A DNA stretch of 60,732 nucleotides, the filler included, from a candidate division WOR-3 bacterium (GTDB lineage: Bacteria; SDB-A): assembly GCA_016934535.1 (NCBI GenBank). It is 5 parts of 5 records of this genome, joined end to end, with 100 filler letters (N's around TTAATTAATTAA, not from the genome) between each part and the next. Parts side by side here need not be neighbours in the genome. Positions count along the whole stretch, not along the records: positions 1 to 13,879 come from JAFGSQ010000052.1; 4 more parts are not named here. The stretch is one strand, 5' to 3'. The notes beneath the pieces are model-generated. The model searched no databases, was not told the origin of the DNA, and saw nothing but the letters and a program-made list of their open reading frames with translations. The number at the start of each line of letters is the position of its first letter. Position 1 is the stretch's first letter. Below, piece after piece: positions 2,466 through 20,068 of this stretch. The position numbers and the translations under genes were made by a program.

Positions 2466-3555
2466 AAAGTGTTTGCATACAATCTTTTTTTTATTAACCG
2501 GTTTATTGGTTTTGTCATGCTCTTCGCTTCACGAAGCGAAATACGATTTTTCAATTTACGGCGGAAGCCGCGATCATTCTCCTTACAGAACAAAAGGCGT
2601 CGAAGAGTTCGGAAAAGAACTCTTTTTCGCCGTTCAGATAAGACCGGTCGGAGTTTTTATTCATGAAACCGGTTATGCTGTATTTGCATCAGACGGAGAA
2701 ATTTTATTTTTTGATCCCGCAGCGGGCACCTTGTCCGTAATTAAAGAGACCGGCCGATATTTTTCTTCGGTAATACAGTCCGGTCAATACTTTTTCGCGG
2801 TTTGCGAAGACAGCGTTCTGATCAAACTTGACGCCGGTTTTTCTTTGGTTTGGGAAGTATCACTTGAAGAAAAAATAATTTCCCTGCCCGTGCTAAATGG
2901 CGGCAATCTGATATTGATCACTGAAAACGGTGTGCGAGGTGTTTCCTCTTCGGACGGCTCTACCGAAGCCCGCGTCGAAGGGTTGAATTTCACGGGCTGC
3001 GGCAGAGTCTCTCCCCTTGTAAACGAAGGTAAAATGTACGTCCCTTCTGCCGGAGGAGAGATTTTATGTTTCGATCTCAAAAAATTCACGCTGTCCTGGA
3101 CTTATTTTACGGGAAGCTTTTTTCCAGTCAGATCGGTTCCTGTTATGACCGGATCGAGACCATCGGTTTTTGACTGCGCCGGAACATTCCACATCTTAAA
3201 TCCCTCGGACGGTTCTCTTTACGGAAAATTCAGATTGCTTCCTATCTCTTCTCCGTCTTTTGCCGCAGTTGACGGAGACGAAGTAGTAGTTTCTAGCCTT
3301 TTCGGAGACAAAATCGTTTTTTCATATTCTCTGAAGAATAGTGAGATGAACTGGATCAAAAAAGGATTTTTCGGACAGCCTTTCATTTTCAAAGACGCCC
3401 TTGTCGTGGCTTCCGACAGTTCATTAACTGTACTCGACAAAAACGGAAATGTTATCGAGAGCTATACTGAAAATTCAGGAGTAACCAGTTATTTCATACA
3501 TCCGCAAGCCTTTTTCATGTTTTCGGATGAAGGATTGAGAATTATATCAAAGTGA
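2437..3555 (+). CDS. PQQ-like/BamB-like beta-propeller repeat lipoprotein (start uncertain, see findings)
   Basis: Lipobox-like LVLSC; blades such as SPLVNEGKMYVPSAGGEILCFDLKKFTLSW. Confidence 0.6.
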   Translation: MFFASSAKNEKCLHTIFFLLTGLLVLSCSSLHEAKYDFSIYGGSRDHSPYRTKGVEEFGKELFFAVQIRPVGVFIHETGYAVFASDGEILFFDPAAGTLSVIKETGRYFSSVIQSGQYFFAVCEDSVLIKLDAGFSLVWEVSLEEKIISLPVLNGGNLILITENGVRGVSSSDGSTEARVEGLNFTGCGRVSPLVNEGKMYVPSAGGEILCFDLKKFTLSWTYFTGSFFPVRSVPVMTGSRPSVFDCAGTFHILNPSDGSLYGKFRLLPISSPSFAAVDGDEVVVSSLFGDKIVFSYSLKNSEMNWIKKGFFGQPFIFKDALVVASDSSLTVLDKNGNVIESYTENSGVTSYFIHPQAFFMFSDEGLRIISK

Positions 3556-3562
3556 GGAAAAT

Positions 3563-4060
3563 ATGCCCCAAGTTTTTCTGAGCGACCGAGCCGTGGTTGA
3601 AGGAGACGTGAGGCTTGGACAAAACGCCAACATCTGGCACTGCGCGGTTTTGAGAGCCGACATAAATCACATCGAAGTAGGCGAGAACACCAACATTCAG
3701 GACGGATGCATTGTTCACGTAACGCACGTACTTCCGGCTGTAATAGGAAAAAATGTAACAGTGGGACACGGCGCCATAGTACACGGGTGCAGGATTGAAG
3801 ACAACGTGTTGATCGGCATGGGGGCCGTAATACTGGACGGTGCCGTGGTCGGAAAAAATTCCGTCGTAGCGGCCGGTGCAGTCGTGCTCGAGAATCAGAA
3901 AATCGAAGAGAATTCGCTTGCGGCCGGAATACCCGCGAAAATTAAAAGGGCTGTATGCCAGGAAGAGGTGCTAAAGATTTCCGAATCCGCCGCTGAATAT
4001 GTTAAACTTGCACAAAAAAAATTAAAAGAGACGAATTTCGACAGGAGGATTGATGATTAA
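3563..4060 (+). CDS. gamma carbonic anhydrase family (hexapeptide repeat) protein
   Basis: VLRADINHIEVGENTNIQDGCIVH...VTVGHGAIVHGC with the three His ligands; RBS GAGGA. Confidence 0.9.
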   Translation: MPQVFLSDRAVVEGDVRLGQNANIWHCAVLRADINHIEVGENTNIQDGCIVHVTHVLPAVIGKNVTVGHGAIVHGCRIEDNVLIGMGAVILDGAVVGKNSVVAAGAVVLENQKIEENSLAAGIPAKIKRAVCQEEVLKISESAAEYVKLAQKKLKETNFDRRIDD

Positions 4061-5177
4061 AAAAATGATGCACGGCAACGAAGCCTGCGCGTATGGAGCC
4101 ATAATAGCCGGCTGCAGATTTTTTGCCGGTTATCCGATTACGCCATCGAGTGAGATCGCCGAAGAAATGGCGGTCATGCTTCCTCAAGTCGGAGGAAAGT
4201 TCATACAGATGGAGGACGAGATAGCTTCGATGGCCGCAATTATCGGTGCGAGCCTCAACGGAATAAAATCCTTGACCGCGACATCCGGACCGGGTTTCAG
4301 CCTCAAACAGGAGAACATCGGTTACGCGTGTCACGCCGAAATCCCGTGCGTTATAGTCAACGTTCAGAGAGGGGGCCCTTCGACGGGCAGTCCGACGATG
4401 CCTTCACAGGAAGATTTCATGCAGAGCAGGTGGGGAACTCACGGGGATCATTTCATAGTCGTGCTTTCTCCGAGCAGTGTTCAGGAAACTTTCGAACTGA
4501 CAATCAAATCGTTCAACATTTCCGAAAAATACAGAACGCCCGTGATTCTTTTGATGGACGAGATAGTCGGGCACATGACTGAAAAAATGATATTACCGGA
4601 ACCTGGAGAGGCGGAAATAATAGAAAGAAAAAAACCCGGCGTGGAACCCGAAAACTTCAAACCGTACGAGACCACTGATGACGGAGTTCCGCCCATGGCG
4701 GCATTCGGAAGCGGTTACAGACATCATGTCACGGGACTGATGCACGACGACACGGGTTTTCCCACAAACGACAACGCCAAAATAAAAGCGCTTAAAGACA
4801 GATGGAAAAAGAAATTTGACATGGCGCGTGATTCTATTGTGATGACGGAGCTGATAGATGCCGAGGACGCCGAGTATCTCGTTTTTTCGTACGGCAGTTC
4901 GGCCAGGTGTGCGAGGAAGGCCGTAAAAATGGCGCGTGAGAAAGGTGTCAAAATCGGACTTATGAAAGCTTTGACACTATGGCCGTTTCCCGACAAAGAG
5001 CTGGCGAAAGCCTCGGAGAAGCTTAAGGGAATAATCGTCGCCGAAATGAACATGGGTCAGGCGATACGCGAAGTGGAACGTGCAATACCGAAAAACGTCA
5101 AAGTTCTTGGTGCAAACAGGTACGACGGCGAATCGATGCACCCCAACGATATTCTAAACGTTATAGAAAAATTTTAA
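4053..5177 (+). CDS. korA: 2-oxoacid:ferredoxin oxidoreductase alpha subunit (KorA-like)
   Basis: GNEA, FFAGYPITPSSEI, QMEDEIAS, ATSGPGFSL, QRGGPSTG; ATG at 4053 after AGGAGG. Confidence 0.92.
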   Translation: MIKKMMHGNEACAYGAIIAGCRFFAGYPITPSSEIAEEMAVMLPQVGGKFIQMEDEIASMAAIIGASLNGIKSLTATSGPGFSLKQENIGYACHAEIPCVIVNVQRGGPSTGSPTMPSQEDFMQSRWGTHGDHFIVVLSPSSVQETFELTIKSFNISEKYRTPVILLMDEIVGHMTEKMILPEPGEAEIIERKKPGVEPENFKPYETTDDGVPPMAAFGSGYRHHVTGLMHDDTGFPTNDNAKIKALKDRWKKKFDMARDSIVMTELIDAEDAEYLVFSYGSSARCARKAVKMAREKGVKIGLMKALTLWPFPDKELAKASEKLKGIIVAEMNMGQAIREVERAIPKNVKVLGANRYDGESMHPNDILNVIEKF

Positions 5178-5190
5178 AAGGGGACAAGGA

Positions 5191-5745
5191 ATGTCTTTTC
5201 GTTACGAAATCAGATTGAGCGGCGCAGGCGGGCAGGGTTTGATATTGATAGGAAAAATCCTCGCCGAAGCCGCGGCTATATTCGCAGACCTGAACGCGAC
5301 CCAGAGCCAGTCATACGGACCTGAATCCCGAGGCGGAGCCAGCAGGAGCGAAGTAATAATATCGGATGAAGACATAGATTATCCGAAAGCCGGACAGGTG
5401 GATTTTCTGCTGGCGATGACACAGGAAGCTTTTGACAAATACTCGGGAATGACGAAAAACGGCGGCGTTATTGTCTACGACAAGGAACTCGTTCACTCGC
5501 CCAAAGAAGTCGAAGGAGTAAGAGTGTATCCTTCCGACATAACAAGCATCGCGGTCAGAGACCTTAAAAAACCTATCGTCGCGAACATGGTCGCCCTCGG
5601 GATAGTCGTGAATCTTTCGAACATACTTCCCGTTGAAACAGTAAAAGAAGCTATAAAGTCGAGGGTTCCGAGAGGAACCGAGGACATCAATCTTCAGGCT
5701 TATGAACTTGGTTACGAAAAAGGGAAAGAGCTTCAGGGGCTTTAA
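5191..5745 (+). CDS. korC: 2-oxoacid:ferredoxin oxidoreductase gamma subunit
   Basis: IRLSGAGGQG, QSYGPESRGGASRSEV, ANMVALG. Confidence 0.92.
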   Translation: MSFRYEIRLSGAGGQGLILIGKILAEAAAIFADLNATQSQSYGPESRGGASRSEVIISDEDIDYPKAGQVDFLLAMTQEAFDKYSGMTKNGGVIVYDKELVHSPKEVEGVRVYPSDITSIAVRDLKKPIVANMVALGIVVNLSNILPVETVKEAIKSRVPRGTEDINLQAYELGYEKGKELQGL

Positions 5746-5753
5746 GGCCATTC

Positions 5754-8717
5754 TTGAAAAGCGCCGAACTTAAACTTCTGACGCCTCTTCAGAGGAATTT
5801 GGAGGAGATTTCCGGATGGGGCAACCACATGCGGAAATACGCTTTTTTCATTGAAAGCAACTACGAATCTCTGATGGAAGAGCTGGCACGGAAAAATTTG
5901 TCCGACGAAATTCACCTTTCTCACAGCCTTCCGGATTTCGACAAACAGATATCGAGAGAGATGGCCGTAATAGCCGGACTCGAAATAGAATGCGCGGACA
6001 AAGTGAAGCATCTGGGGACTTATTATGCAATAAAACTTGTCCAGCTCAACGTCACTACTATAGATTTCATAAGACCCGCGGTCATCAAGTCGGATCCTCT
6101 GAAAGCATACGAGAATTTCATGCGCGAAATCGGATGGAAATTCAGATCCCTGACGTCAATATTTCTCGAGAATCTGATACCAATCCTTTCAGCAGACCTT
6201 AGAATCCCGCCATTTATAATAGCGAGTGTAGGCACAAGAACAGACATGGACGACATAGATGCCGCCGTAATAACCGTTGACAGCGACACAAAAGATCTCG
6301 ACAAACTGCTGAGCCGAGTCAACAAAGTGATGACCAAGTACGGAACCACGATGCATTTTCATCTGGCTGAAAGCATAGACAATGGCAAATACAGCGCGAC
6401 TGTAGCGGAATTCATCGGTTTTGCCGTTCAAAATGTTTCAAATTTTGTCTTCATAACCGAAATAATCGGCGCGAAGAGAATTTATGGGCCGCATAACCTG
6501 ATGGAAGAATTTGAAGAAGAGGTATTTCAGCTTTTTTATCCGGAATATTCTCCCGACGTCAGGTATCACGAAGCGTATCTCAGGATGATTTTGGGCGAGA
6601 TAAGAATTTATCTCAACAGAAAGATTGAATCGGAATACATAAATCCGAAAAACGACGCTCTGAGAATGATAAAAGCGCTGATAACAGTTCAAAAGACAAG
6701 ATACGGTATATATAAAAAAAATCCATGGGCAGTGCTCGATAAACTTAAATATTTTGATTCAAAGAACTGGGACATCTACAAAGCCATTGGAGAAAGTCTG
6801 GCTTTTGTCGAAACTCTGAGGTTTTTGTTCATGCTCTATGGAACACAGGAAGAACTGATCCAGCTCGATGTTCCTGAAAACGTGAACACGCTTAAGCAGA
6901 TAGCAGGGATAATGGGGATTGACTCCATCGGTGCTGTGTCTAGCTTAGAACACCTCCTTATAAGATATTACGACCATTTGAGGCGAGTCAAGAAAATCGT
7001 AGAATTCATGCTCGATGACTGCCGGGAATACCTGAAAAGGATAACTCTCATAAATGAGGTCCTCACGGAAAACAAGGGTAACCTCGCCGTCAATTTCGCG
7101 AAAAATTCTGACATTTTCAAGGGTTCCGATTTCTGGGACGACATACTCGAAGCCTTCTCACTGGACGATTTCAGGCTTTTGCGGGTATTCGCGAGAGATT
7201 ATCTCTCTCTTGATCCTAGGTTAAGGAAAGTCATCCTCAAAGGACTTTTTTCGCGCATCGAGTACACTTTTGACGGTCTCGTATCATTCATCGTCATGTT
7301 AGGAACTCAAAAAAACTACAAAGAGATGTTGCCGGTCAGGGATGAGTTTCTTTTGTACCTGACAAACAGCTTTCAAAACACACCGGATCTTCTTTTTTCA
7401 CTCGTCGGATTTTTCGAAAAAAACAATATAGGGCTCTGCCTTCTTCTCGAAAGTATTGACAGAGAAACTCTTCTAAAAATAAAAGAAACCTTCGCCAATC
7501 TCAGGGAAGATTCCTCTGAAAAGAAATCTAAAAAATCAAAAAACTACAATTTCAAGAATGTTCTCAACATTTACGCTGAAGGCAGCCGCTATTTCAGAAA
7601 ATATTTCCAAAAAATCCTTCTTTCCGACCCATGGATAGTAAAACTGATAGAATCCGAGGAAAAAATCGAAGACATATGCTCGGGAATATTTGCCGAGATA
7701 TCGAGAACTGTCAACAGACAGACTCAAAAGTCGCTTTTGACGCGATTTTACAATCTGAAATTCTTGAACATCGGCCTCGAAGCAATAGGAGGTAAATCTT
7801 ACGACGGGATTTCAAAGGATTTTATTGAGCTTAACAACGATTATCTGGTCACGCTTTTCGACGTGTGTTTTCTGGAATTGGAAGAGCAGAAATCTTTGAG
7901 GTTAAAAGGGGAAGACCTTTTTTTGTTTTTTATAGTGGGCAGTCTCGCCCGAGAAAGTTCATTCAACGATGACATAGACATACTCGTCATTATGGACACG
8001 GAAGAGACCGACCTATTTACTTCATACAATAAAATTCTTTCGAGAATGAGCAGAGAAATAGTAAAGACAGGCACCATTCCGCAGTTCAGACTGGCCGATC
8101 ATTTCGGCACATACGTGACTAAAATGAGCGATTTAAAGTCATTTTTCCAAAAAAACACATCTGACACTTTCATCGAAAAATCCCAGATCCTCGAGTCAAA
8201 ATTAATTACCGGCTCTGAAATGTTTTTGGAAAAATTCAAAAGCGAGCTGATAGAAGAAGAAATTTTCACCAAATGGGACATTTTCGCTAAAAAAATGCTC
8301 GATGAAATAACAGGCAGACACGAAAACAATTCCGATTTCATATACAATGTCAAAGAAAGCCCCGGTGGAATAAAAGACATCGAGATGATTTTTCTAATAT
8401 TGAAAGCCAAATACGGAGTAGTCTTCAAATACGGGGAAGAACTGGTCCAGGAGCTGGCGGAAAGAATGCCGGCAACATCGGATCTCGTCGCTAGAGCCGC
8501 CCTTTATCTCAAGCAATTGAGGGAAATAAGACAATTCATGAGATTAACAGTATCAAAAACGAATGTAATAGATACGACCGAACTTTCCAGAAATTTTAAA
8601 TCTTCTGTGATTCCATACAACGGCAGAAATTCTTCCGATTTTGAAGAATATTACCGCAGATTGATGTCAAATTCGAGAGAGAATCTCGAGAAATTAATAG
8701 GTCTCGTTTTTATATAG
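5754..8717 (+). CDS. GlnE-like protein with two pol-beta-type nucleotidyltransferase domains
   Basis: Two G-x(n)-DxD cores (VGTRTDMDDIDAAVI; VGSLARESSFNDDIDILVI), each followed by a GlnE/GlnD-type helical motif (INPKNDALRMI; YNVKESPGGIKDIE); TTG start 8 nt after korC stop. Confidence 0.65.
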   Translation: MKSAELKLLTPLQRNLEEISGWGNHMRKYAFFIESNYESLMEELARKNLSDEIHLSHSLPDFDKQISREMAVIAGLEIECADKVKHLGTYYAIKLVQLNVTTIDFIRPAVIKSDPLKAYENFMREIGWKFRSLTSIFLENLIPILSADLRIPPFIIASVGTRTDMDDIDAAVITVDSDTKDLDKLLSRVNKVMTKYGTTMHFHLAESIDNGKYSATVAEFIGFAVQNVSNFVFITEIIGAKRIYGPHNLMEEFEEEVFQLFYPEYSPDVRYHEAYLRMILGEIRIYLNRKIESEYINPKNDALRMIKALITVQKTRYGIYKKNPWAVLDKLKYFDSKNWDIYKAIGESLAFVETLRFLFMLYGTQEELIQLDVPENVNTLKQIAGIMGIDSIGAVSSLEHLLIRYYDHLRRVKKIVEFMLDDCREYLKRITLINEVLTENKGNLAVNFAKNSDIFKGSDFWDDILEAFSLDDFRLLRVFARDYLSLDPRLRKVILKGLFSRIEYTFDGLVSFIVMLGTQKNYKEMLPVRDEFLLYLTNSFQNTPDLLFSLVGFFEKNNIGLCLLLESIDRETLLKIKETFANLREDSSEKKSKKSKNYNFKNVLNIYAEGSRYFRKYFQKILLSDPWIVKLIESEEKIEDICSGIFAEISRTVNRQTQKSLLTRFYNLKFLNIGLEAIGGKSYDGISKDFIELNNDYLVTLFDVCFLELEEQKSLRLKGEDLFLFFIVGSLARESSFNDDIDILVIMDTEETDLFTSYNKILSRMSREIVKTGTIPQFRLADHFGTYVTKMSDLKSFFQKNTSDTFIEKSQILESKLITGSEMFLEKFKSELIEEEIFTKWDIFAKKMLDEITGRHENNSDFIYNVKESPGGIKDIEMIFLILKAKYGVVFKYGEELVQELAERMPATSDLVARAALYLKQLREIRQFMRLTVSKTNVIDTTELSRNFKSSVIPYNGRNSSDFEEYYRRLMSNSRENLEKLIGLVFI

Positions 8718-8728
8718 GAGGTCAAGTT

Positions 8729-8944
8729 TTGCAGACAAAAAAATTTAAGATCACGGTTGACGAAAAGCTTTGCAAGGGATGCGAAAACTGCGTCACTCAG
8801 TGTCCCAAAAAAGTTCTCGAACTCAACTTGTTGCAGAAAGCTTTCGGCGCAAGACAAAACGACTGCATAGGATGTCTCAGGTGCGAGTATGTCTGTCCTG
8901 ATTTCGCGATAACTGTAACCGAAATTGAAGGAGACTCAAAATGA
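8729..8944 (+). CDS. korD: 2x[4Fe-4S] ferredoxin, oxidoreductase delta subunit
   Basis: CKGCENCVTQCP and CIGCLRCEYVCPDFAI; TTG start, RBS AGGAGG overlapping the upstream stop codon. Confidence 0.9.
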   Translation: MQTKKFKITVDEKLCKGCENCVTQCPKKVLELNLLQKAFGARQNDCIGCLRCEYVCPDFAITVTEIEGDSK

Positions 8945-9807
8945 AAACCGAAATAGTCCTGTCCTATCTCAGAAGGAACAAGCTGCCTCACATCTGGTGC
9001 CCCGGATGCGGCCACGGCATCATCCTGGGTTCTCTCATAAGAGCCATACACAAGACAGGTTGGAAAAAAGACGACATAGCTCTCGTCTCCGGGATAGGCT
9101 GTTCGAGCAGAACTCCAGGATACGTCGACTTTAATACTCTTCACACCACTCACGGAAGATCACTCGCTTTCGCTGCCGGCATTAAATTTTCCAATCCGAA
9201 ACTCAATGTCATATCAGTGATGGGGGACGGCGACGCTGTAGCGATCGGCGGTAATCATTTCATCCACGCCGCGAGAAGAAACCTTAACATCACTGCCCTG
9301 GTGTTCAATAATTACATTTACGGAATGACCGGAGGCCAGTTTTCTCCCACGACTCCCCAAAAAGCCATAGCTTCGACGACTCCTTACGGCAACATTGACG
9401 GTAATTTCGACATTACGGCTCTGGCGACAGGCGCGGGAGCAGGTTTTGTCGCAAGAAGCACCGCGGTGCACGTTCCGGCCCTTGACGACATAATTTTCAA
9501 AGCGCTGACATACGACGGATTCGCTGTCGTCGAGATATTGAGCTTTTGCCACGTTCAATTCGGAAAAAGGAACAAGTTGAAAACATCTTTCAGCATGATA
9601 GACTGGCTGAAAGGTATGACATTACCCTTTACTGCCTACGAAAAACTCGACCCGGAGGCAAGAAAAGACAAAATACCGGTTGGCATTTTCAAGAATGAAC
9701 CGACTGAAGAATATTCAAAAAAATATGAAAAACTTATCGTTGAGCCAAATCAGTCGAAAAACAGTATTTTAAAGGAATATTGCAAAGCAAAGCTTTATGA
9801 TTTATGA
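8941..9807 (+). CDS. korB: 2-oxoacid:ferredoxin oxidoreductase beta subunit (TPP-binding)
   Basis: WCPGCGHG, VSGIGCS, HTTHGR, GDGD...NN, YGMTGGQFSPT. Confidence 0.93.
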   Translation: MKTEIVLSYLRRNKLPHIWCPGCGHGIILGSLIRAIHKTGWKKDDIALVSGIGCSSRTPGYVDFNTLHTTHGRSLAFAAGIKFSNPKLNVISVMGDGDAVAIGGNHFIHAARRNLNITALVFNNYIYGMTGGQFSPTTPQKAIASTTPYGNIDGNFDITALATGAGAGFVARSTAVHVPALDDIIFKALTYDGFAVVEILSFCHVQFGKRNKLKTSFSMIDWLKGMTLPFTAYEKLDPEARKDKIPVGIFKNEPTEEYSKKYEKLIVEPNQSKNSILKEYCKAKLYDL

Positions 9808-10735
9808 TATTTCTTTAAAAACTGTACTTGTTACAGGCGCTGATGGTTTCGTCGGAGGAATGGTTGCGTCAAAATTATCCCGCGACAAACGCTTTAAAAC
9901 AGTCGGAACTTCGCTTTCTGAAGTCTGTGATGAAAAAAAAGAGTTCGATCTTGTCACGATAGATATTACGGATTTCAAAGATGTCAGGAAACTCATCGAA
10001 GAAACCAGACCGGACATTGTCTATCATTTCGCCGCCCAATCTAGCGCAGGATATTCTTTTAGCGACGCTTCGACGACGTTTAAAGTCAATTTTGAAGGTA
10101 CTATTAATTTTCTTGAGACCATGAGGGAAACCGACATAAAATTCATTTACGTATCATCTTCAGAAGTATACGGCGACACGGGAGGAAGAAAAGCGACTGA
10201 AAACGATCTGGTCGCGCCTCTCAGCCCGTATGGAGCGAGCAAGGCCGCGGCTGAAATAGCTGTTTTGCAGTATTCGCGGTCATTCAACATGAATTGCTCG
10301 GTGATCAGACCTTTTCCCCAAGTCGGAAAGGGCCAGAACGGCAGGTTTTTTATCCCGTCAATGGCCAAACAAATAATGGACATTAAAAAAGGCATTCTGG
10401 CGCCAGAGATTAAAACAGGCAATCTAGGACCTGTAAGGACATACATAAGCGTTGAAGACGCAGTAGTTTTTTATCTGGCGATGATAGATAAAGCCCAAAA
10501 GGGAGAGATATACAACCTGGCGGGCAGACAAGACATCAGCCTTCTTCAAATACTTAACATGATGAAAGATATTGCGGGAGTGGAAGCCGAAATAGTTCAA
10601 AGCGACGATTTGCTGAGGGCTTCTGATCCGGAGTTCCAGCTCGGTTCACCGGAAAAAATAGAAAAGACGACGGGCTATACACCAAAAAGAAAAATAGAAG
10701 ATGAGATAAGGGAAATACTGGATAATTACAGATGA
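9797..10735 (+). CDS. NAD-dependent nucleotide-sugar epimerase/dehydratase (GDP-mannose 4,6-dehydratase/Rmd-like SDR)
   Basis: VLVTGADGFVG, HFAAQSS, SSSEVYG, SPYGASK (YxxxK). Confidence 0.85.
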   Translation: MIYDISLKTVLVTGADGFVGGMVASKLSRDKRFKTVGTSLSEVCDEKKEFDLVTIDITDFKDVRKLIEETRPDIVYHFAAQSSAGYSFSDASTTFKVNFEGTINFLETMRETDIKFIYVSSSEVYGDTGGRKATENDLVAPLSPYGASKAAAEIAVLQYSRSFNMNCSVIRPFPQVGKGQNGRFFIPSMAKQIMDIKKGILAPEIKTGNLGPVRTYISVEDAVVFYLAMIDKAQKGEIYNLAGRQDISLLQILNMMKDIAGVEAEIVQSDDLLRASDPEFQLGSPEKIEKTTGYTPKRKIEDEIREILDNYR

Positions 10736-13979: not shown

Positions 13980-14063
13980 AGGATCTGGTGGTCCAGCTGG
14001 TCTTCAAAACCAGTAGCGGCCGGATAAAACCGTCCGTGGCAGGTTCGATTCCTGCCCTCTCTG
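13980..14063 (+). tRNA. selC: tRNA-Sec (anticodon TCA), 5' end missing at contig start
   Basis: D stem GGATC-TGGT-GGTCC, 6-bp anticodon stem GCTGGT/ACCAGT with loop CTTCAAA, long variable arm, T arm GCAGG-TTCGATT-CCTGC; directly upstream of selA and selB. Confidence 0.92.
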
Positions 14064-14089
14064 TTTGTAAATCTTTAACCGGACGGTGT

Positions 14090-15502
14090 TTGATCAAAAA
14101 GGAAATATCAGAAATAAGAAGGATCCCGAGCGTCGAAGCGTTTCTAAAAACTCCAGAGTATGTAAAGATGTCTGAAAAATACGGGAGGAACGCTTTAGTA
14201 TATTCAGTCAGATCCGCTTTGGACGAAATCAAAAAAAGCGAAGATCCGGGTTTGATTGATGATATAGAAAAAGAAACGCTTGCAAGAACACGTAAAAAAC
14301 TCTTTAAAATCTTTGATTCCGGACTGCGTGAAGTGATAAACGCGACCGGTGTTGTCATACATACAAATCTCGGCAGATCCTCTCTCGGAGAGGAGGTCGT
14401 CAGAGAGATGTCGAGTGTTTTGACGGGATACTGCGATCTGGAATTTGATCTTTCCAGGGGAGAGCGGGGGAAAAGAACCGAATGTGTGGAAGAAGCTTTG
14501 AAATTCCTGACAGGCGCTGAAGCCGTCGCCGTAGTCAACAACAACGCGGCCGCTTTGATGCTTGTTCTAAGCGTGTTTGCCCGAAAAAAAGAAGTCGTTG
14601 TATCAAGAGGCGAACTTGTTGAAATAGGCGGATCTTTCAGAATACCTGAAATTCTAAACGCTTCGGGCGCAAAAATGGTCGAAGTCGGCACGACGAACAG
14701 AACCAGGATATCGGATTATTCACAGGCTATAGGTCCGAGAACGGCAATGTTATTGAAAGTGCATAAATCAAACTATGTTATAAAAGGCTTTACGGAAGAA
14801 GTTCCGCTTGAAAAACTGACAGAACTGTCAAAGAAAAAACAGGTTCCTCTGCTTTTCGATCTTGGATCCGGATGTGTCAACAACAGGATTCACAGGATAT
14901 TTGCTCAAGAACCGGACGTCAAAAGCGCTGTCCTTTCGGGAGCGGATTTTGTCTGCTTCAGCGGAGATAAGCTTTTCGGAGGTCCGCAGGCGGGAATTAT
15001 TTGCGGAAGAAAAGAGAACATAGACAGGCTGAAGAAGGCTCCGTTGATGAGAGCGTTGAGAGTCGGAAAACTGACACTTTCGGCACTCGGTTCAGTTTCG
15101 GTCAGGCATGCAGTAACTTCAAGCGTCCCTGAGGGCGTTCCGGTTTTGAGAATGATGACATCAGATCCTGAAGGCGTCAAAGCAAAAGCGACAAAATTGG
15201 CCGATTTGATCGTTCAGAGGGGTTTACAGGCGCGGATCGAGAAAAGCGCTGGCAAAAGCGGGGGAGGTTCCCTCGCCGATTTGGACATTGAAAGCTATTG
15301 CGCGATTGTAGAGTTTTCGGATAAAAAAGATAAGAAAAAAGCCCAGAGGATATATAATGGACTGATGGCGATGAAAAAACCTGTCGTCGCCGTTCTCAGA
15401 AAAGGGGAGCTCGCTTTCGACGTATTGACGGTCGAAGAAAAAGACCTGAAATACATAGCGGATTCCACAGGCTCGATATATGAAACGCTTCAAGAGATAT
15501 AA
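14090..15502 (+). CDS. selA: L-seryl-tRNA(Sec) selenium transferase
   Basis: VINATGVVIHTNLGRS, VVNNNAAA, SRGELVEIGGSFRIP, FSGDKLFGGPQAG, RALRVGK; start moved to TTG 14090 because the 13988 start lies inside the tRNA. Confidence 0.95.
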   Translation: MIKKEISEIRRIPSVEAFLKTPEYVKMSEKYGRNALVYSVRSALDEIKKSEDPGLIDDIEKETLARTRKKLFKIFDSGLREVINATGVVIHTNLGRSSLGEEVVREMSSVLTGYCDLEFDLSRGERGKRTECVEEALKFLTGAEAVAVVNNNAAALMLVLSVFARKKEVVVSRGELVEIGGSFRIPEILNASGAKMVEVGTTNRTRISDYSQAIGPRTAMLLKVHKSNYVIKGFTEEVPLEKLTELSKKKQVPLLFDLGSGCVNNRIHRIFAQEPDVKSAVLSGADFVCFSGDKLFGGPQAGIICGRKENIDRLKKAPLMRALRVGKLTLSALGSVSVRHAVTSSVPEGVPVLRMMTSDPEGVKAKATKLADLIVQRGLQARIEKSAGKSGGGSLADLDIESYCAIVEFSDKKDKKKAQRIYNGLMAMKKPVVAVLRKGELAFDVLTVEEKDLKYIADSTGSIYETLQEI

Positions 15503-15505
15503 AAG

Positions 15506-17434
15506 TTGAAACATTTCATCATGGGAACGGCGGGGCATATTGACCACGGAAAAACCCTGCTGGTCAAAGCCCTGACTGGGATTGACTGCGACACTCACGC
15601 CGAAGAGAAAAAAAGAGGAATAACCATACATCTCGGGTTCGCGCACCTGGATTTTGCATCAGGTGAAAAAGTAGGAATCGTTGATATGCCCGGGCACAAA
15701 GATTTTATTCACACTATGGTTTCCGGGGCAAGCGGTATTGACATAGCGCTTTTGGTAATTTCAGCCGACAGCGGCATTATGCCCCAGACCAGAGAGCACC
15801 TCTGGATAATGCAGACCCTGGGAATTGCAAAAGGTCTTGTCGCGATGACAAAGACGGACATAGTGGATGCGGAAACGGCCGAAATTGCGGAGGACGACAT
15901 AAGATCTTTCACCGCGGGAACTTTTCTCGAAAACTGCCCGGTTGTGCGGGTCTCTTCGGTTACAGGCAGCGGAATCGAAGCCCTGAGAAAGGAAATTCAC
16001 AGACTGATAGAGGGAACTGAACCGAGATCGGGTGAAGGTATTTTCAGGATGTACCCCGACAGAATATTCAGTGTTCCGGGTTTCGGAAGCGTACTCACCG
16101 GCTCCGTGATTGAAGGAAAAATCAGAAAAGATGCAAAACTGTTCATGCTTCCCGGCGCTAAAAAAGAATACAGAATAAGGCGTATGGAAAGGCACGGCTC
16201 TGAAGCCGATGAAATATACGCCGGCGACAGAGCTTCGATAAATCTGGCCGGATTGGAGCGGGAAGAATTCGTCAAGGGTAACCTTTTATCGGACAGGGAT
16301 CTGGCTCAGACTAAAATGCTGGACGCCAGGATTTCTTTGTTCAGGGACGGACGAAAGATTCATGTATGGTCTAACGCAATATTTCTTATAGGAACACATG
16401 AACAGCAGGCGAGAATTCACTTGCTCAGCGCGGACGTTCTGAAACCGGGAGACTCCGGAGACGTTCAAATGCACCTGTCAAAGCCGATAGCGGCAAGATA
16501 CGGCGACAGATTCATAATAAGGAGCACGTCTGACGACTGCACTTTAGGAGGGGGTTTCGTGGCTGATGTTTTCCCGTTACATCACAGGAGGAGGACGGCG
16601 AAGCTTAAGGAAAAAGCGGCAGAAATCGCCGCAGGCGGAGTGGCGTTTGCCGTTGTCGAAGAGATCAACAAAAAAGGCGGAGTCGCCAGATTGTCCGACG
16701 TCTCCAATTCAATGAACATTCACGAAAATCATATTTTAAAGGCTCTCGATTCGGGCAGGGGGAAGATCATGGTCTTGCTGCCTTATAAAAACGATTTCAT
16801 AATAATAAAAAAAGAAGAAGAAATTTCAGTCAGAAAAAGGATACCGTCCCTGATAAACGGTTTTACTGAAAAAAATCCTCTGCTGAACAGAGGTCCGAGC
16901 CTCGAGGAAATAAAAGGTGCGGCTTATGCGAGAAAGAATAATGTCTTTGCGGACCTTCTTGCCCTGATACTCGAAGACATGAGAAAAAAAGGTGAAATAG
17001 AGAAAAAGGGCGAGAACTGGTCCGTCACCGGCAAAAAGGACGGATTGGACCCCAGACTTTTGTCGCAGGTCGAGACAATGGAGAAATTTCTCGAAGAATC
17101 AGGCGTCAAAGTTCCTAGGTACGAAGAATTGGCCGAATACGGGGGACGGTTCAATATATCTGAAAAAGAATTGAAGCTCGTTTTGAATTATCTCGTGCAG
17201 ACCAAAAAAGCTCACAGAATAGAAGGCGAATATATTTCGGCTAAAATCGCGGACAAGGCCAAAAAGTTACTGAAAAAAGCGATGGAAGGCGCCGAAAACG
17301 GCATAACCGTTGCCCAGTTCAGGGACCTGATGGACGCAAACAGAAAACTGTGCCTTCTTCTCTTCGCACTGTTCGACAGTGAAGGTTTCACCGTCCGCAG
17401 GGGAGATGTTCGGTTTATCAAAAAAAATATCTGA
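15506..17434 (+). CDS. selB: selenocysteine-specific translation elongation factor
   Basis: GTAGHIDHGKT, EEKKRGITIHLGF, DMPGH, C-terminal winged-helix end FRDLMDANRK...FDSEGFTVRRGDVR. Confidence 0.95.
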   Translation: MKHFIMGTAGHIDHGKTLLVKALTGIDCDTHAEEKKRGITIHLGFAHLDFASGEKVGIVDMPGHKDFIHTMVSGASGIDIALLVISADSGIMPQTREHLWIMQTLGIAKGLVAMTKTDIVDAETAEIAEDDIRSFTAGTFLENCPVVRVSSVTGSGIEALRKEIHRLIEGTEPRSGEGIFRMYPDRIFSVPGFGSVLTGSVIEGKIRKDAKLFMLPGAKKEYRIRRMERHGSEADEIYAGDRASINLAGLEREEFVKGNLLSDRDLAQTKMLDARISLFRDGRKIHVWSNAIFLIGTHEQQARIHLLSADVLKPGDSGDVQMHLSKPIAARYGDRFIIRSTSDDCTLGGGFVADVFPLHHRRRTAKLKEKAAEIAAGGVAFAVVEEINKKGGVARLSDVSNSMNIHENHILKALDSGRGKIMVLLPYKNDFIIIKKEEEISVRKRIPSLINGFTEKNPLLNRGPSLEEIKGAAYARKNNVFADLLALILEDMRKKGEIEKKGENWSVTGKKDGLDPRLLSQVETMEKFLEESGVKVPRYEELAEYGGRFNISEKELKLVLNYLVQTKKAHRIEGEYISAKIADKAKKLLKKAMEGAENGITVAQFRDLMDANRKLCLLLFALFDSEGFTVRRGDVRFIKKNI

Positions 17435-19240
17435 TCACTCTTTTCTCAAATAATTGTCAATGTCGGAGGCGGCGTCTTTTGCGGCTCCCATGGCGAGAAT
17501 TACTGTAGCCGAGCCGGTCACGATGTCTCCGCCTGCCCAGACGCCCTCCAGAGAGGTTTTGCCGGTTTCCGGGTCAACATCAATGTAGCCCCATTTGTTC
17601 CTTTTCATGTCCTGAGTGCCCTGAAAAAGAACTTCATTGGGTCCCGTGCCTATTGCCATTATTACCATGTCGCAGCCAATTTCGTAATCGGATCCTTCCA
17701 AAGGTTCGGGTTTTCTTCTTCCTGAATCGTCGGGTTCGCCGAGTTTCATTTTTATACAGGTCAATCCGCTTACGTTTCCCCGTTTGTCCTGATTGATCGC
17801 TGTGGGATTTGTCAGGAGATGAAATTCTATTCCTTCGTGTTCTGCGTGGACGATCTCCTCTTTTCTTGCAGGCATTTCGTCTCTGGAACGTCTGTAAACA
17901 AGAGAGACTTTTTCGGTTCCGGGCGACCTGAGAGCCGTTCTCGCGCAGTCCATGGCGACATTTCCGCCTCCTACAACGGCGACCCTTCTTCCCCTCGGAT
18001 TGGGAGTGTCAAAACGCGGAAACATATATGCTTTCATCAGGTTCATTCTGGTGAGATATTCGTTTGCAGAAAATACGCCGGGTGCGTTTTCACCGGGTAT
18101 GTTCATAAACTTCGGCAGGCCTGCTCCTGTGGCTATATACACGGCGTTGAATCCGAGCTCGTCGAACAGTTCATTTATTGTGAATATTTTGCCAATAACA
18201 TGATTGGTTTTGAAAATGACTCCGAGTTTTTTCAAATAATCTATTTCCTGGCGGACGATTTCTTTCGGAAGACGGAACTCGGGAATTCCGTATACGAGAA
18301 CGCCTCCGAGTTCGTGAAGAGCTTCATAGACTACTACTTCGTGGCCGAATTTCACCATCTCGGAAGCCATTGTAAGACCGGACGGACCCGATCCGATGAC
18401 GGCGACTTTTTTTCCTGTTTTCGGGCATTTTGGCGGGATGTGAACTCCCATGGCTCTCTCGTAATCGGCTACGAATCTTTCGAGATTCCCTATAGCCACA
18501 GGTTCTTCGCTTCTTCCAAGTATGCATTTGGCTTCGCATTGTATTTCCTGGGGGCAGACTCTGCCGCAGATGGCGGGCAGCGAGTTGGTCTCCTTTATTT
18601 TCCTTATTGCGCCTATCATGTCATTTTCACGTATACAGCCTATGAATTCCTTAATGTCTATGTTTACAGGACAGCCTTCGATGCAGGTCGGCTTTTGACA
18701 TTGCATGCATCTGTAAGCTTCGAGTGCCGCCTGTTCCATTCGGAGACCAAGAGGAACTTCCTCAAAATTCTTTATTCTTATGTAAGGGTCCTGTTCTGTC
18801 ATTTTCTGCCTAGGTATGCGGATTTTAAGCCACCCTTCGTCCTCTTTTTCAAGTCCGTGCCAGGTACAGCCCTTTTTCGCGCAAATGTAAAAAGGAAGAA
18901 GGCGTGAATATGCCGAAACGAAGATTCTGGCAATTTTATGGTCTCCGAGCTCGCATTTTCTGGTCTCGACTATGAAAGATTGACTGCAATAAGGGCAAAA
19001 AATATCATCGGCTGTCGCTCCTTCCGGCATCTCTATCGTCAGCTCGACATCGAAAATATTGAGATAAGGGCTCAGTTTCAGTTTCCCTTTTTTACCTTCG
19101 TATTCGATCCCGACCTCAACGAATTCCGTTTGTTTCTGGGGATACTTCTTGTTAAGCCCTCTGTGGCAGTTCGGGCAGTAAGTCTGGAGTTTCGAGCCGT
19201 ATTTTATGTACTTAAAGTCAGTGATACTGTTCATAGACAC
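17435..19240 (-). CDS. NfnB/SudA-type (GltD-like) NADPH-dependent flavoprotein large subunit with an extra N-terminal Cys-rich domain
   Basis: RCMQCQKPTCIEGCPV, CGRVCPQEIQCE, VIGSGPSG, YGIPEFRLPK, VVGGGNVAMD, AGGDIVTG; ~135 extra N-terminal residues. Confidence 0.88.
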   Translation of the reverse strand: MSMNSITDFKYIKYGSKLQTYCPNCHRGLNKKYPQKQTEFVEVGIEYEGKKGKLKLSPYLNIFDVELTIEMPEGATADDIFCPYCSQSFIVETRKCELGDHKIARIFVSAYSRLLPFYICAKKGCTWHGLEKEDEGWLKIRIPRQKMTEQDPYIRIKNFEEVPLGLRMEQAALEAYRCMQCQKPTCIEGCPVNIDIKEFIGCIRENDMIGAIRKIKETNSLPAICGRVCPQEIQCEAKCILGRSEEPVAIGNLERFVADYERAMGVHIPPKCPKTGKKVAVIGSGPSGLTMASEMVKFGHEVVVYEALHELGGVLVYGIPEFRLPKEIVRQEIDYLKKLGVIFKTNHVIGKIFTINELFDELGFNAVYIATGAGLPKFMNIPGENAPGVFSANEYLTRMNLMKAYMFPRFDTPNPRGRRVAVVGGGNVAMDCARTALRSPGTEKVSLVYRRSRDEMPARKEEIVHAEHEGIEFHLLTNPTAINQDKRGNVSGLTCIKMKLGEPDDSGRRKPEPLEGSDYEIGCDMVIMAIGTGPNEVLFQGTQDMKRNKWGYIDVDPETGKTSLEGVWAGGDIVTGSATVILAMGAAKDAASDIDNYLRKE

Positions 19241-19243
19241 CGC

Positions 19244-20068
19244 CTATCTTATTGAAAAAAGAAGGGATTCCCGTTCCTGGATCATATAAGCTCTCAGCCT
19301 TTTCTCGAGTTCGTCGAAATCAACTTTGTGTCCGTCGAAGTCCGGTCCGTCAACACAGGCGAATTTCGTCTTTCCGTCCACCGTGCATCTGCACACTCCG
19401 CACATCCCGGTGCCGTCGAGCATAATGGGATTGAGGGAAACGAGGACCGGTATGTAGGGATTTTTTGCTGTTTCGACGCACGCGCGCATCATGGGTGTCG
19501 GCCCTATAGCGACAATCTGTTTGACGTCTTTTCTTTTTGAAATGACGTCTTTGAGGACATCGGTTACGAAACCTCTGATGCCGTATGAACCGTCGTCTGT
19601 GCAGGTGATAAGCTGGTGGCTGATCTGATTCATTTCTTTTTCCATTATTATCAGAGATTTTGTTCTGGCTCCGATAATTGAAATTATCTCGTTGCCCATT
19701 TCATATAATGCTTTTGTCAGATGGTGAAGGATTGCTATACCAGTTCCTCCTCCGACGCAGACGACCGTTCCGTACTTTTCGAGATGGGTCGGTTTGCCGA
19801 GAGGACCCACCACGTCTTTTATGTTTTCCCCAATTCCGAGATTCCGCAGTATCGCAGTCGTTTTCCCTATCACCTGAAAAATCAGCGTGATGGTGCCTTC
19901 TTCGACGTTTTTATCCGCAACGGTCAGTGGTATTCTTTCCCCTTCATTTGTGGCTTTGACTATTACGAATTGCCCGGGTTTCACTTTTCTAGCTATGTCT
20001 TGCGCCTTGACAGTAAACTGGCAAATCGTGTTCTCGGCCATGCTTGTCTTTTCGATAACAGGATACAT
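19244..20068 (-). CDS. NfnA/SudB-type FAD/NAD-binding [2Fe-2S] small subunit
   Basis: PGQFVI, ERIPLT, GPLG, GGGTG, TDDGSYG, DGTGMCGVCRC...CVDGPDF. Confidence 0.9.
   Translation of the reverse strand: MYPVIEKTSMAENTICQFTVKAQDIARKVKPGQFVIVKATNEGERIPLTVADKNVEEGTITLIFQVIGKTTAILRNLGIGENIKDVVGPLGKPTHLEKYGTVVCVGGGTGIAILHHLTKALYEMGNEIISIIGARTKSLIIMEKEMNQISHQLITCTDDGSYGIRGFVTDVLKDVISKRKDVKQIVAIGPTPMMRACVETAKNPYIPVLVSLNPIMLDGTGMCGVCRCTVDGKTKFACVDGPDFDGHKVDFDELEKRLRAYMIQERESLLFSIR

Follow-up and report, generated by a model that had tools for sequence, protein, structure and literature searches.

A GlnE-like double nucleotidyltransferase linked to the CoA-binding gamma subunit of 2-oxoacid:ferredoxin oxidoreductases as a candidate covalent switch

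We describe NT2, a protein with two pol-beta nucleotidyltransferase (NTase) cores whose ORF is inserted between korG and korD in the operon of a 2-oxoacid:ferredoxin oxidoreductase (OFOR), and which is best read as a protein nucleotidyltransferase of GlnE-like build, with the CoA-binding gamma subunit KorG as its target or its controller. This reading draws on the predicted fold of NT2, on the invariance of its motifs, on the linkage of its gene to korG and on a predicted complex of the two proteins.

An unannotated gene within an OFOR operon

The window, that is, the whole 60,732-nucleotide stretch of DNA analysed here (filler included), comes from a candidate division WOR-3 bacterium (GCA_016934535.1). 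Pfam and NCBIfam matches identify the operon at NT2 as that of a four-subunit OFOR comprising korA, korG, korD and korB. The alpha gene korA (4050..5177, + strand) has POR_N and PFOR_II matches and scores 571 bits with NF006412 (cut-off 411). It is followed by korG (5191..5745, +), which encodes the gamma subunit, or domain III, the CoA-binding mobile domain, and matches PF01558 (POR), its 210.6 bits with NF006323 lying below the cut-off of 235. NT2 (5754..8717, +), recognized from its ORF, homologues, AlphaFold model and structure matches, is followed by korD (8729..8944, +), a delta subunit identified by a domain match as a 2x[4Fe-4S] ferredoxin, and by korB (8941..9807, +), the TPP-binding beta subunit, which matches PF02775 (TPP_enzyme_C) and reaches 335.7 bits with NF007207, below its cut-off of 364. 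As korA is the only subunit gene above an NCBIfam cut-off, and its model is the generic '2-oxoacid:acceptor oxidoreductase alpha', the initial annotation's assumption of 2-oxoglutarate as the substrate is not supported. A gene for a hexapeptide-repeat, gamma-carbonic anhydrase-like protein (3563..4060, +; Pfam Hexapep; 146.9 bits with the NCBIfam gamma carbonic anhydrase model, below the cut-off of 250) overlaps the start of korA and opens the conserved block in the window's clade, being kept 5′ of korA in three further loci (L001–L003).

NT2 has 987 residues, and its ORF spans 5754–8717 (+) including the stop codon, with a TTG start. An alternative ATG at 5829 corresponds to M26, but N24, upstream of it, is invariant in 46 homologues, which supports the longer form. 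The korG stop codon (TAA, 5743–5745) is separated from the TTG at 5754 by 8 nt, and the NT2 stop codon (TAG, 8715–8717) overlaps the AGGAGG at 8716–8721 that forms the ribosome-binding site of korD, whose TTG lies at 8729. Both of these junctions had been reported in the initial annotation and were verified by position, as were, on the translated ORF, the two NTase cores and the motifs that follow them: GTRTDMDDID (residues 160–169, nt 6231–6260), GSLARESSFNDDID (residues 729–742, nt 7938–7979), INPKNDALRMI around K299–R304 (nt 6648–6665) and NVKESPGGIKDIE (residues 865–877, about nt 8346–8384).

By sequence, NT2 is a distinct, unannotated family of proteins of ~990 residues. It has 155 representatives (50%-identity clusters) at E<1e-30, as against 1397 at E<1e-3; a relative is encoded in 185 species genomes, and all named relatives are called "hypothetical protein". 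The family is found in uncultured anaerobic phyla, among them WOR-3, Zixibacteria, KSB1, Calditrichota, Acidobacteriota and others, and its spread is patchy, with 4 of 81 sampled genomes positive in the phylum of genome G002 (the phylum of G001 contributed only two genomes to this survey). Our literature search, with subscription journals and supplementary files outside its reach, found no account of a GlnE-like protein with an OFOR, in agreement with the earlier impression that the arrangement is undescribed. In a 2026 PFOR review we found no NT2-like partner described, and the term "post-translational" has 0 occurrences in its main text (PMC13768988).

Fold, catalytic motifs and relation to GlnE and GlnD

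The AlphaFold2 model of NT2 (mean pLDDT 84.3, pTM 0.64) resembles GlnE, as the motifs had led the initial annotation to expect: a central helical linker lies between two modules, both of which consist of an NTase and a helical domain behind it, with Z scores of 23–28 to GlnE and DrrA structures. The only Foldseek matches in the PDB at E≤1e-3 are the N-domain (1v4a, 1.4e-8) and C-domain (3k7d, 2.5e-6 and 6.6e-6) of E. coli GlnE, and DrrA (6yx5_B, 1.6e-4); the NT2 sequence itself has no PDB match at E≤1. In VIA-align superpositions, the C-terminal module (residues 549–987; 7398..8714, +), which also carries a weak PF08335 match (E 2.7e-10), aligns to 1v4a over residues 568–983 (Z 28.0, rmsd 4.1, 385 aligned) and to 3k7d_B over its full extent (Z 27.8, 374 aligned). 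The N-terminal module (residues 77–438; 5982..7067, +) superposes on the DrrA/SidM AMPylation domain (6yx5, 3nku; Z 23.1, rmsd 4.3 and 302 aligned with 6yx5_B), whereas the best unrelated structure reaches Z 8.3. Between the modules, a linker domain (residues 439–548; 7068..7397, +) is all-helical in the model, falls outside the GlnE and DrrA alignments and stands where GlnE has its central regulatory domain.

The two modules differ in their active-site motifs. The usual pol-beta superfamily NTase motif is G-[GS]-x9-13-D-x-[DE]. The C-module core is canonical (G729-[GS]-x9-D740-x-D742, nt 7938–7979; G729-S-x9-D740-I-D742 in the window) and is followed by K867-E-xx-G-G-x-R-D-x-E877 (nt 8352–8384). 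The N-module core is atypical (G160-T-x5-D167-x-D169, nt 6231–6260), its G-[ST]-x5-DxD hairpin fitting the superfamily motif loosely, and its second motif is degenerate (K299-x-D301-xx-R304, nt 6648–6665). Given the shortened hairpin and the pLDDT of 55 for modelled residues 161–170, the N-module may be without catalysis. In the C-module, hhalign against a real GlnE pairs the Asp of the GlnE D-x-R-L-R-P strand with H777, a Gln in the window protein. We take this Asp to be the third metal ligand of GlnE; if so, the C-module would have no third acidic ligand at the canonical place, and the nearby D782 or the extra invariant D739 could stand in for it.

Across 46 NT2 sequences from many phyla, 28–76% identical to the window protein, G160, D166, D167, D169, G729, R733, D739, D740, D742, K867, G871 and D875 are invariant, as are H201, E206, E236, H272, R277 and R304 of the N-module. 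Invariance at this level of divergence indicates that the motifs are more than chance, and the DxD motifs proposed at the outset are indeed kept in homologues, both as DDxD clusters.

GlnE shares with NT2 two homologous NTase-plus-helical modules, a central helical domain and a length of about 950–1000 residues, and shares with the C-module a DxD core and the K-x-x-x-G-G-x-R-D-x-E motif. Both GlnE domains match the NT2 fold at Z 28, yet identity in the structural alignments is 11–12% (11–21% between NT2 modules and those of GlnE or GlnD), and the N-module has lost the GG that GlnE has in its helical motif and shortened its hairpin to G-x6-DxD. PF03710 has no match in NT2 at E≤1, hhalign with a real GlnE reaches 68.6% probability for one module only, and no NCBIfam GlnD model scores above 38 bits, their cut-offs being 519–1299 (1010 for the best-scoring model). 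The closest relative by sequence is GlnD, which has the PF08335 match and the NTase-plus-helical unit in common with NT2 (hhalign of residues 720–986, 94.4%, E 8.4e-8). However, GlnD carries HD and ACT domains, whereas NT2 has no Pfam match to either and has a second NTase module instead. Judged by these comparisons, NT2 is neither a canonical GlnE nor a GlnD, and the expectation that it would not group with canonical GlnE was borne out.

Gene content leads in the same direction. With queries taken from other NT2-bearing genomes (six glutamine synthetase (GS), one PII, one GlnE and one GlnD), tblastn of the window gave chance-level matches only for glnA and PII, as the initial annotation had it; the GlnE and GlnD queries weakly matched NT2 itself. 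This absence rests mainly on tblastn, as the Pfam scan covered 21 window proteins. Among four complete NT2 genomes other than the window's, three have no PII (the substrate of GlnD), GlnE or GlnD, and NT2 is their sole PF08335 protein; the fourth has a full PII-GlnE-GlnD-GS cluster 0.53 Mb from NT2. A PF03710 search found the true GlnE in G003 and matched NT2 in none of the four. GS genes are present in all four, but the pattern N[LIVM][YFH][DEK][LIVM]P, which we assume to describe the adenylylation loop, is absent from GS of the three PII-less genomes and occurs only in that of the fourth, as NIYDMP; by this pattern, a GS open to adenylylation, raised earlier as a check, occurs in one of these four genomes. 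NT2 is independent of PII, GlnE and GlnD: it is linked to korG rather than to glnA or glnB, some genomes that encode it have neither PII nor an adenylylatable GS, and one encodes a true GlnE as well. With no PII gene in three of the four genomes, any control there is not PII-mediated, and the proposed link to carbon/nitrogen status through 2-oxoglutarate and PII is not supported.

Linkage to korG and a predicted complex

The association with kor genes extends well beyond this genome. Of the best 80 NT2 loci, two lack an upstream flank; among the 78 that could be assessed, korG lies within 1 kb 5′ of NT2 on the same strand in 48, which span 14 taxon labels. These comprise 29 loci with korA/B and korG followed by NT2 and 19 with a lone korG followed by NT2; a further eight have kor genes elsewhere in the locus and 22 have none within about 7 kb. 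In 36 of the 46 loci measured, korG and NT2 are separated by no more than 150 nt. Adjacency is kept in three gene orders, korDABG-NT2, korA-korG-NT2-korD-korB (the window and L001–L003) and stand-alone korG′-NT2, and NT2 thereby shows the gene adjacency across distant lineages that would be expected of an OFOR partner. The adjacent korG is the sole gamma gene of the operon in the window and 28 other loci. In the complete genomes G002–G004, the lone korG′ is an extra paralogue: the divergent neighbour OFOR has its own korG, as does the best-matching OFOR elsewhere in the genome. Where NT2 lies away from kor, a full-length KorG is still encoded in five of five genomes (242–286 bits with the profile of NT2-linked KorG). 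Neighbours of NT2 in kor-less loci include an SdhA/FrdA-type flavoprotein, PEPCK with an enoyl-CoA hydratase, an FlpD/Fer4 protein and a symporter, and a DUF6036 small NTase gene lies directly 5′ of NT2 in 14 related loci. Other OFOR operons also hold an additional embedded gene, but NT2, at 110 kDa and with its two NTase cores, resembles an enzyme rather than a small subunit.

Complex prediction with the C-terminal half of NT2 (residues 439–987) and KorG gave an ipSAE, the model's own confidence, of 0.64 (0.64, 0.63 and 0.65 in separate runs), against 0.01 for the best of three controls. This passes a mark that 58 of 80 solved complexes attain, as do 2 of 110 mismatched pairs; these counts apply only approximately because our own alignments were used. 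At least 84% of contacts recur between runs, partner pLDDT is 86 or higher, and we know of no similar complex, which makes it unlikely that the pass reflects model memory. The predicted interface comprises NT2 residues 739, 759–787, 807, 851 and 854–855, including invariant D739, R779, E851 and R855, and KorG residues 22–66 (nt 5254–5388) and 157. Invariant or nearly invariant NT2 residues make up 9 of 27 interface positions versus 47 of 522 others (Fisher p 0.0007). NT2 is thus predicted to dock on KorG at the conserved catalytic face of its C-module; the central linker, present in the run, is not contacted. The initial annotation had named the oxidoreductase as one possible target, and the prediction supports this and makes its gamma subunit the best candidate for a target or partner. 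Residues that set NT2-linked KorG apart from 'type-2' KorG account for 7 of 22 interface positions versus 16 of 162 in the comparison over all positions (p 0.009), an enrichment; among conserved positions the counts are 7 of 16 and 16 of 47 (p 0.55), so with no enrichment there we do not count this test as support. We also rejected KorG Tyr42 as a mark unique to NT2-linked copies: other KorG paralogues in the same genomes have Tyr, and Phe occurs at this position only in 'type-2' KorG.

A candidate covalent switch and its alternatives

NT2 probably works with KorG or with the OFOR as a whole. Beyond this, we infer its catalysis, nucleotide, acceptor residue, reversibility and physiological signal. 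In the account that we favour, the catalytic face of the C-module would dock on KorG at a surface made up of residues 22–47 and 61–66, and the module would move an NMP to a hydroxyl side chain there. The NMP might be AMP or, given the NTase-plus-helical unit shared with GlnD, UMP. Known GlnE-fold enzymes modify tyrosines, which makes Tyr42, in the S-Y-G-P-E-x-R-G loop, the leading candidate acceptor. GlnE adenylylates and deadenylylates Tyr397 of GS, and DrrA of Legionella, also of GlnE fold, AMPylates a tyrosine in a protein other than GS, so the fold can be retargeted. DrrA nevertheless differs from NT2 in having only one module (G-x11-D-x-D), to which GEF and PI4P-binding domains are fused, and as a secreted effector that acts on a host GTPase it is unrelated in context and target. 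OFOR domain III is a peripheral, wing-like domain (PMC5020499) that binds CoA and moves about 7 Å on doing so (PMC13768988). Because closure of the active site requires this CoA-binding domain to swing, an adduct on it would turn the OFOR off or bias it. A 2025 review describes GlnE as combining a central regulatory domain with two homologous ones that write and erase the modification on a tyrosine hydroxyl, and names GS-ATase and SidM as examples of nucleotidyltransferase-fold AMPylases (PMC12409994). NT2 would share such opposing activities by analogy only, with the N-module taking the adduct off KorG.

We give the whole account, in which the C-module NMPylates KorG, the adduct switches or biases the OFOR and the N-module removes it, a probability of roughly 0.4. 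Covalent NMPylation of KorG by NT2 is, by itself, a tentative proposal. A reversible nucleotidylylation switch at Tyr (or Ser/Thr) of the OFOR gamma subunit, operated by two NT2 modules and in some lineages served by a dedicated stand-alone gamma paralogue, is more tentative still, and the role of the N-module as eraser is doubtful.

The most serious alternative, which we consider rather unlikely, makes KorG, and especially the KorG′ paralogue, a CoA- or acyl-CoA-sensing regulatory partner comparable to PII, the substrate of NT2 being some other protein, such as a different OFOR subunit, a ferredoxin or a metabolic enzyme from an unlinked gene. Predicted binding fits substrate and regulator alike, but the contact lies on the C-module catalytic face (D739 beside the DxD, R779, E851 and R855) and not on the linker. 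Similarly, the extra korG′ beside NT2 in 19 of 78 loci, although the neighbouring OFOR owns a korG, would suit a regulator, whereas an adjacent korG that is the only gamma gene of its operon, as in the window and 28 other loci, would not. The 22 loci in which NT2 has other neighbours from central carbon metabolism, among them SdhA/FrdA and PEPCK, are also consistent with it, as are the CoA binding of domain III (PMC13768988) and the control of GlnE itself by a small bound regulator (PMC12409994).

It is less probable that NT2 modifies no protein, and is instead an OFOR scaffold or assembly subunit or a small-molecule nucleotidyltransferase acting on a pathway metabolite or cofactor. The unusual hairpin of the N-module could be read in this way, as could the apparent lack of a third Asp at the canonical place in the C-module, yet both DDxD clusters, R733, R779, K867, G871 and D875 stay invariant in distant phyla, which speaks for catalysis. 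ANT(4′) and AAD(9), which combine an NTase with a helical domain, are among the weaker structure matches (Z 7.4–8.3), and a small NTase gene precedes NT2 in the 14 DUF6036 loci; against these, the top structures are the protein-modifying GlnE-N, GlnE-C and DrrA, at Z 23–28, and KorG is predicted on the catalytic face. Finally, an equivalent of GlnE or GlnD that acts on GS or PII, its kor linkage merely reflecting 2-oxoglutarate metabolism, is very unlikely: the fold and KExxGGxRDxE motif are of that type and GS genes are universal in the complete genomes, but PF03710 and the NCBIfam GlnD models fail to recognize NT2, PII and the adenylylation-loop pattern are missing from three of those genomes, the fourth has its own dedicated cluster, and the NT2 flanks examined showed neither a GS nor a PII gene.

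In anaerobes, and in carbon fixation by the reductive TCA cycle, the main flow of carbon between acyl-CoAs, CO2 and 2-oxoacids runs through OFORs, which include KOR, PFOR and their relatives, and to our knowledge little has been described of how cells turn these enzymes off or set their direction. If our favoured reading is true, no earlier description of post-translational control in the OFOR/PFOR family would precede that by NT2, and the mechanism, covalent switching of GlnE type at the mobile domain that binds CoA, would be direct and testable. It would also add to the few natural substrates on record for AMPylases of the nucleotidyltransferase fold, bring to three the natural target classes of protein NMP-transferases with a GlnE fold, and give a function to "hypothetical proteins" of ~1000 residues in at least 185 species genomes. 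Together with its predicted docking on KorG, the presence of korG-adjacent NT2 in many uncultured phyla hints that an enzyme central to carbon metabolism in anaerobes may be turned on and off in a way so far undescribed.

The korG–NT2 gene pair

NT2, a double-nucleotidyltransferase protein of 987 codons with a TTG start (window 5754-8717, plus strand), is encoded inside a four-subunit 2-oxoacid:ferredoxin oxidoreductase (OFOR) operon. It lies between korG (5191-5745, plus strand; PF01558), which encodes the CoA-binding domain III, and korD (8729-8944, plus strand; two [4Fe-4S] motifs); the remaining subunits are korA (4050-5177, plus strand; POR_N and PFOR_II) and korB (8941-9807, plus strand; TPP_enzyme_C). 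The layout proposed in the initial annotation was confirmed: a 987-aa frame opens 8 nt after the korG stop, and its TAG stop overlaps the AGGAGG preceding korD. Judged by conservation, the long TTG start is right: N24 lies upstream of an alternative ATG (codon 26) and does not vary across 46 homologues; the NCBI record of a close candidate division WOR-3 relative likewise has 987 aa. Only korA among the kor genes passes an NCBIfam cut-off (NF006412, 571 bits against 411), and the model it matches is generic, which leaves 2-oxoglutarate plausible as a substrate without establishing it.

A hexapeptide protein resembling gamma-carbonic anhydrase (3563-4060, plus strand), which scores under the NCBIfam threshold, shares 11 nt with the beginning of korA and keeps this position in loci L001-L003; such a CO2- or bicarbonate-handling protein, joined to the operon, could be a sign that the OFOR runs in the carboxylating direction. 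About 8 kb from the operon, a 601-aa protein with Fer4_20 and Pyr_redox_2 domains (GltD/NfnB/SudA-like; 17435-19240, minus strand) and the adjoining 274-aa ORF (19244-20068, minus strand) may form an Nfn-type ferredoxin:NAD(P) oxidoreductase. Side by side at 13988-17434 (plus strand) stand selA (selenocysteine synthase) and selB (Sec-specific elongation factor). Selenocysteine is therefore in use in this organism, and TGA codons that fall in frame in other parts of the genome may encode it. A 1043-aa FG-GAP repeat protein (42838-45969, plus strand) carries a C-terminal Por_Secre_tail, a type IX secretion sorting domain, which fits an organism related to the FCB group. Among named NT2 relatives the closest comes from candidate division WOR-3; the Desulfuromonadaceae label on L001-L003 seems to reflect a fault in binning or labelling.

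The kor linkage extends beyond this genome. The best 80 NT2 loci were searched by tblastn with the window's own proteins; two lacked upstream flank, leaving 78 to be assessed. In 29 of the 78, korA/B, korG and NT2 follow one another on the same strand with korG at most 1 kb upstream, and in 19 a lone korG precedes NT2 under the same limits; 8 carry kor genes elsewhere in the locus and 22 are kor-free. In 36 of 46 measured loci no more than 150 nt separate korG and NT2; in some seven the gap is about 750-850 nt, and in six of these it is filled by a small DUF6036 nucleotidyltransferase gene. Three gene orders preserve this adjacency: most often korD-A-B-G-NT2; in the window and L001-L003, korA-G-NT2-korD-B; and, third, a stand-alone korG (korG') ahead of NT2, often in divergent orientation to a second, more distant OFOR operon of type 2, whose korA and korG share 48-50% and 36-40% identity with the window genes. 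The korG-positive loci bear 14 different taxon labels, among them Stahlbacteria, KSB1, Zixibacteria, TA06, Calditrichota, Acidobacteriota, Gemmatimonadota, Zhuqueibacterota and Ignavibacteria, bearing in mind that labels of metagenome-assembled genomes may be unreliable. NT2 is patchily distributed, occurring in 4 of 81 sampled genomes from the phylum of G002, one of four complete genomes that encode it (G001-G004).

The lone korG' of G002-G004 is a genuine additional paralogue: the divergent type 2 operon and the best-matching OFOR elsewhere in the genome each possess a korG of their own. Directly 5' of NT2, korG' lies at about 6300-6950 in L019, L022, L023, L041, L045, L058, L061, L069, L074, L076, L077, L079 and L080, usually beside a complete divergent korD-A-B-G operon of the more distant type. 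Both full OFOR operons stand side by side in L071 and L072, which suggests that a first operon was lost and left the lone korG' behind.

Fold, motifs and relation to GlnE and GlnD

The only Pfam match in NT2 is PF08335 (GlnD_UR_UTase; residues 845-927, E 2.7e-10), NCBIfam GlnD models reach at most 38 bits against cut-offs of 519-1299, and a PDB sequence search with NT2 gave no match. Structure is more informative. When an AlphaFold2 model built from 14 homologues (mean pLDDT 84.3, pTM 0.64) was searched with Foldseek, both domains of E. coli GlnE, N- and C-terminal, and the DrrA AMPylation domain were the only hits at E<=1e-3. VIA-align placed residues 568-983 on the GlnE N-terminal domain (Z 28.0, rmsd 4.1, 385 aligned), 549-987 on the C-terminal domain (Z 27.8) and 77-438 on DrrA (Z 23.1, 302 aligned), the best unrelated entry scoring Z 8.3; residues 439-548 are modelled as a helical linker. 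GlnE itself consists of two homologous modules with a central domain between them (PMC12409994), and in the model NT2 has the same two-module, central-linker plan.

All four motifs quoted in the initial annotation are present in NT2 at the positions it gave. The core of the C-module, G729-S-x9-D740-I-D742, is canonical, and the module also has a K867-E-xx-G-G-x-R-D-x-E877 motif; the N-module has G160-T-x5-D167-I-D169, with a hairpin that is shorter than its counterpart (pLDDT 55 in the model), and a degenerate K299-x-D301-xx-R304. Across 46 sequences, 28-76% identical to the window protein, D166, D167, D169, D739, D740 and D742 are invariant, as are R733, R779, E851, R855, K867, G871 and D875. 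A caveat is that, in the hhalign alignment with genuine GlnE, the Asp of D-x-R-L-R-P, the presumed third metal ligand, pairs with H777 (Q in the window).

A profile search over 1.84 billion representatives found 155 proteins at E<1e-30, 312 at E<1e-10 and 1397 at E<1e-3; a relative is encoded in 185 species genomes, and all named family members are called "hypothetical protein". By hhalign the family profile matched true GlnD (94.4% probability, E 8.4e-8) and true GlnE (68.6%, E 4.6e-5), in both cases only through the C-module. Each of the four complete NT2 chromosomes encodes a glutamine synthetase (GS). PF03710 (GlnE) occurs in G003 only, and the PF08335 matches in the other three are NT2 and nothing else. 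An adenylylation-loop pattern was found only in the G003 GS, which lies within a PII-GlnE-GlnD-GS cluster. NT2 is thus found both in genomes that lack the nitrogen cascade and in one that has it in full, independently of PII, GlnE and GlnD, which argues against its being the GlnE of these organisms. The initial annotation had noted that glnA and PII are absent from the window, and tblastn likewise found neither GS nor PII there. Its reading of NT2 as a GlnE-like double nucleotidyltransferase tied to the oxidoreductase is supported; the proposed link to C/N status through PII is not, PII being present in only one (G003) of the four chromosomes.

Predicted contact with KorG and a possible modification cycle

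We predicted the complex of KorG with NT2 residues 439-987 (linker and C-module), using alignments of 46 rows each from the same loci in the same order. The ipSAE was 0.64 (0.64, 0.63 and 0.65 by run), against 0.01 for the best of three controls; 58 of 80 solved complexes reach the ipSAE mark used, as do 2 of 110 mismatched pairs, a calibration that is rough for custom-made alignments such as these. At least 84% of contacts agree between runs, and partner pLDDT is at least 86. The predicted interface takes in NT2 residues 616, 620, 739, 759-787, 807, 851 and 854-855, that is, the helix and strand after the DxD strand plus the invariant D739, R779, E851 and R855, thus placing KorG on the catalytic face. 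Invariant or nearly invariant residues make up 9 of 27 interface positions against 47 of 522 others (p 0.0007). KorG contributes residues 22-47 and 61-66, including S39, Y42-G43-P44, R47 and D63-Y64-P65-K66. Two cross-checks lent the contact no further support: residues specific to NT2-linked KorG copies were not enriched at the interface after correction for conservation (p 0.55), and Tyr42, considered as a mark of NT2-linked KorG, was set aside, as unlinked KorG paralogues have it too.

GlnD and DrrA modify tyrosines. GlnE acts on a GS tyrosine hydroxyl, and its second module removes the adduct by phosphorolysis (PMC12409994). According to a 2026 PFOR review, CoA binds to OFOR domain III (gamma), which moves through about 7 Å and so closes the active site (PMC13768988); in a solved OFOR the domain is peripheral and wing-like and also flanks the modelled ferredoxin site (PMC5020499). 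From a moving, CoA-binding domain and a removable tyrosine modification we derive a three-step proposal, inferring that NT2 is catalytic and answers to a signal. The C-module would place AMP or UMP on a hydroxyl in the KorG loop region, with Tyr42 the first candidate and S39, S41 and Y64 alternatives; the adduct would hamper CoA binding or domain closure; and the N-module would take it off. The main rival, which we consider unlikely, has KorG or KorG' act as a sensor while another molecule is modified. KorG sits in a substrate-like position in the predicted complex, which would fit a substrate or a regulator alike.

Loci beyond the operon and novelty

Directly 5' of NT2 in 14 loci (L008, L013, L014, L016, L020, L026, L033, L034, L036, L038, L043, L054, L070 and L071) is a gene of about 245 aa, at about 6200-6970 where NT2 starts at 7001, with a weak match to Pfam DUF6036 (nucleotidyltransferase of unknown function). 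The window lacks an equivalent. In some loci the gene lies between korG and NT2, and in Stahlbacteria, TA06 and Cloacimonadota it may supply the system with a third component. Proteins of 580-643 aa are encoded directly 5' of NT2 on the same strand in L007 (74-2005), L040 (4913-6766), L046 and L047; they have no Pfam or NCBIfam match, and that of L040, L046 and L047 appears low-complexity or repetitive.

Among the 22 kor-free loci, five (L057, L062, L063, L065 and L075) carry a divergent SdhA/FrdA-type succinate dehydrogenase/fumarate reductase flavoprotein cluster (minus strand, about 3200-6800), together with a conserved 207-aa protein 3' of NT2 (about 10009-10630) that has no Pfam or NCBIfam match. 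In two others (L060 and L064) PEPCK and enoyl-CoA hydratase precede NT2; further neighbours include a FlpD/Fer4 protein, a symporter and unknown proteins. A full-length KorG is encoded elsewhere in all five searched genomes of kor-free loci (242-286 bits with the NT2-linked KorG profile). The tie to central C4/C5 metabolism persists without kor.

In the literature searched, supplements and subscription journals aside, we found no description of a GlnE-like protein with an OFOR, and the word "post-translational" does not occur in the main text of the 2026 PFOR review (PMC13768988). The nucleotidyltransferase-fold examples named in a 2025 review of AMPylation are GS-ATase and SidM (PMC12409994). 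NMP-transferase chemistry by a GlnE-fold protein is known; what is new is the NT2 family, the details of its architecture and its apparent target.
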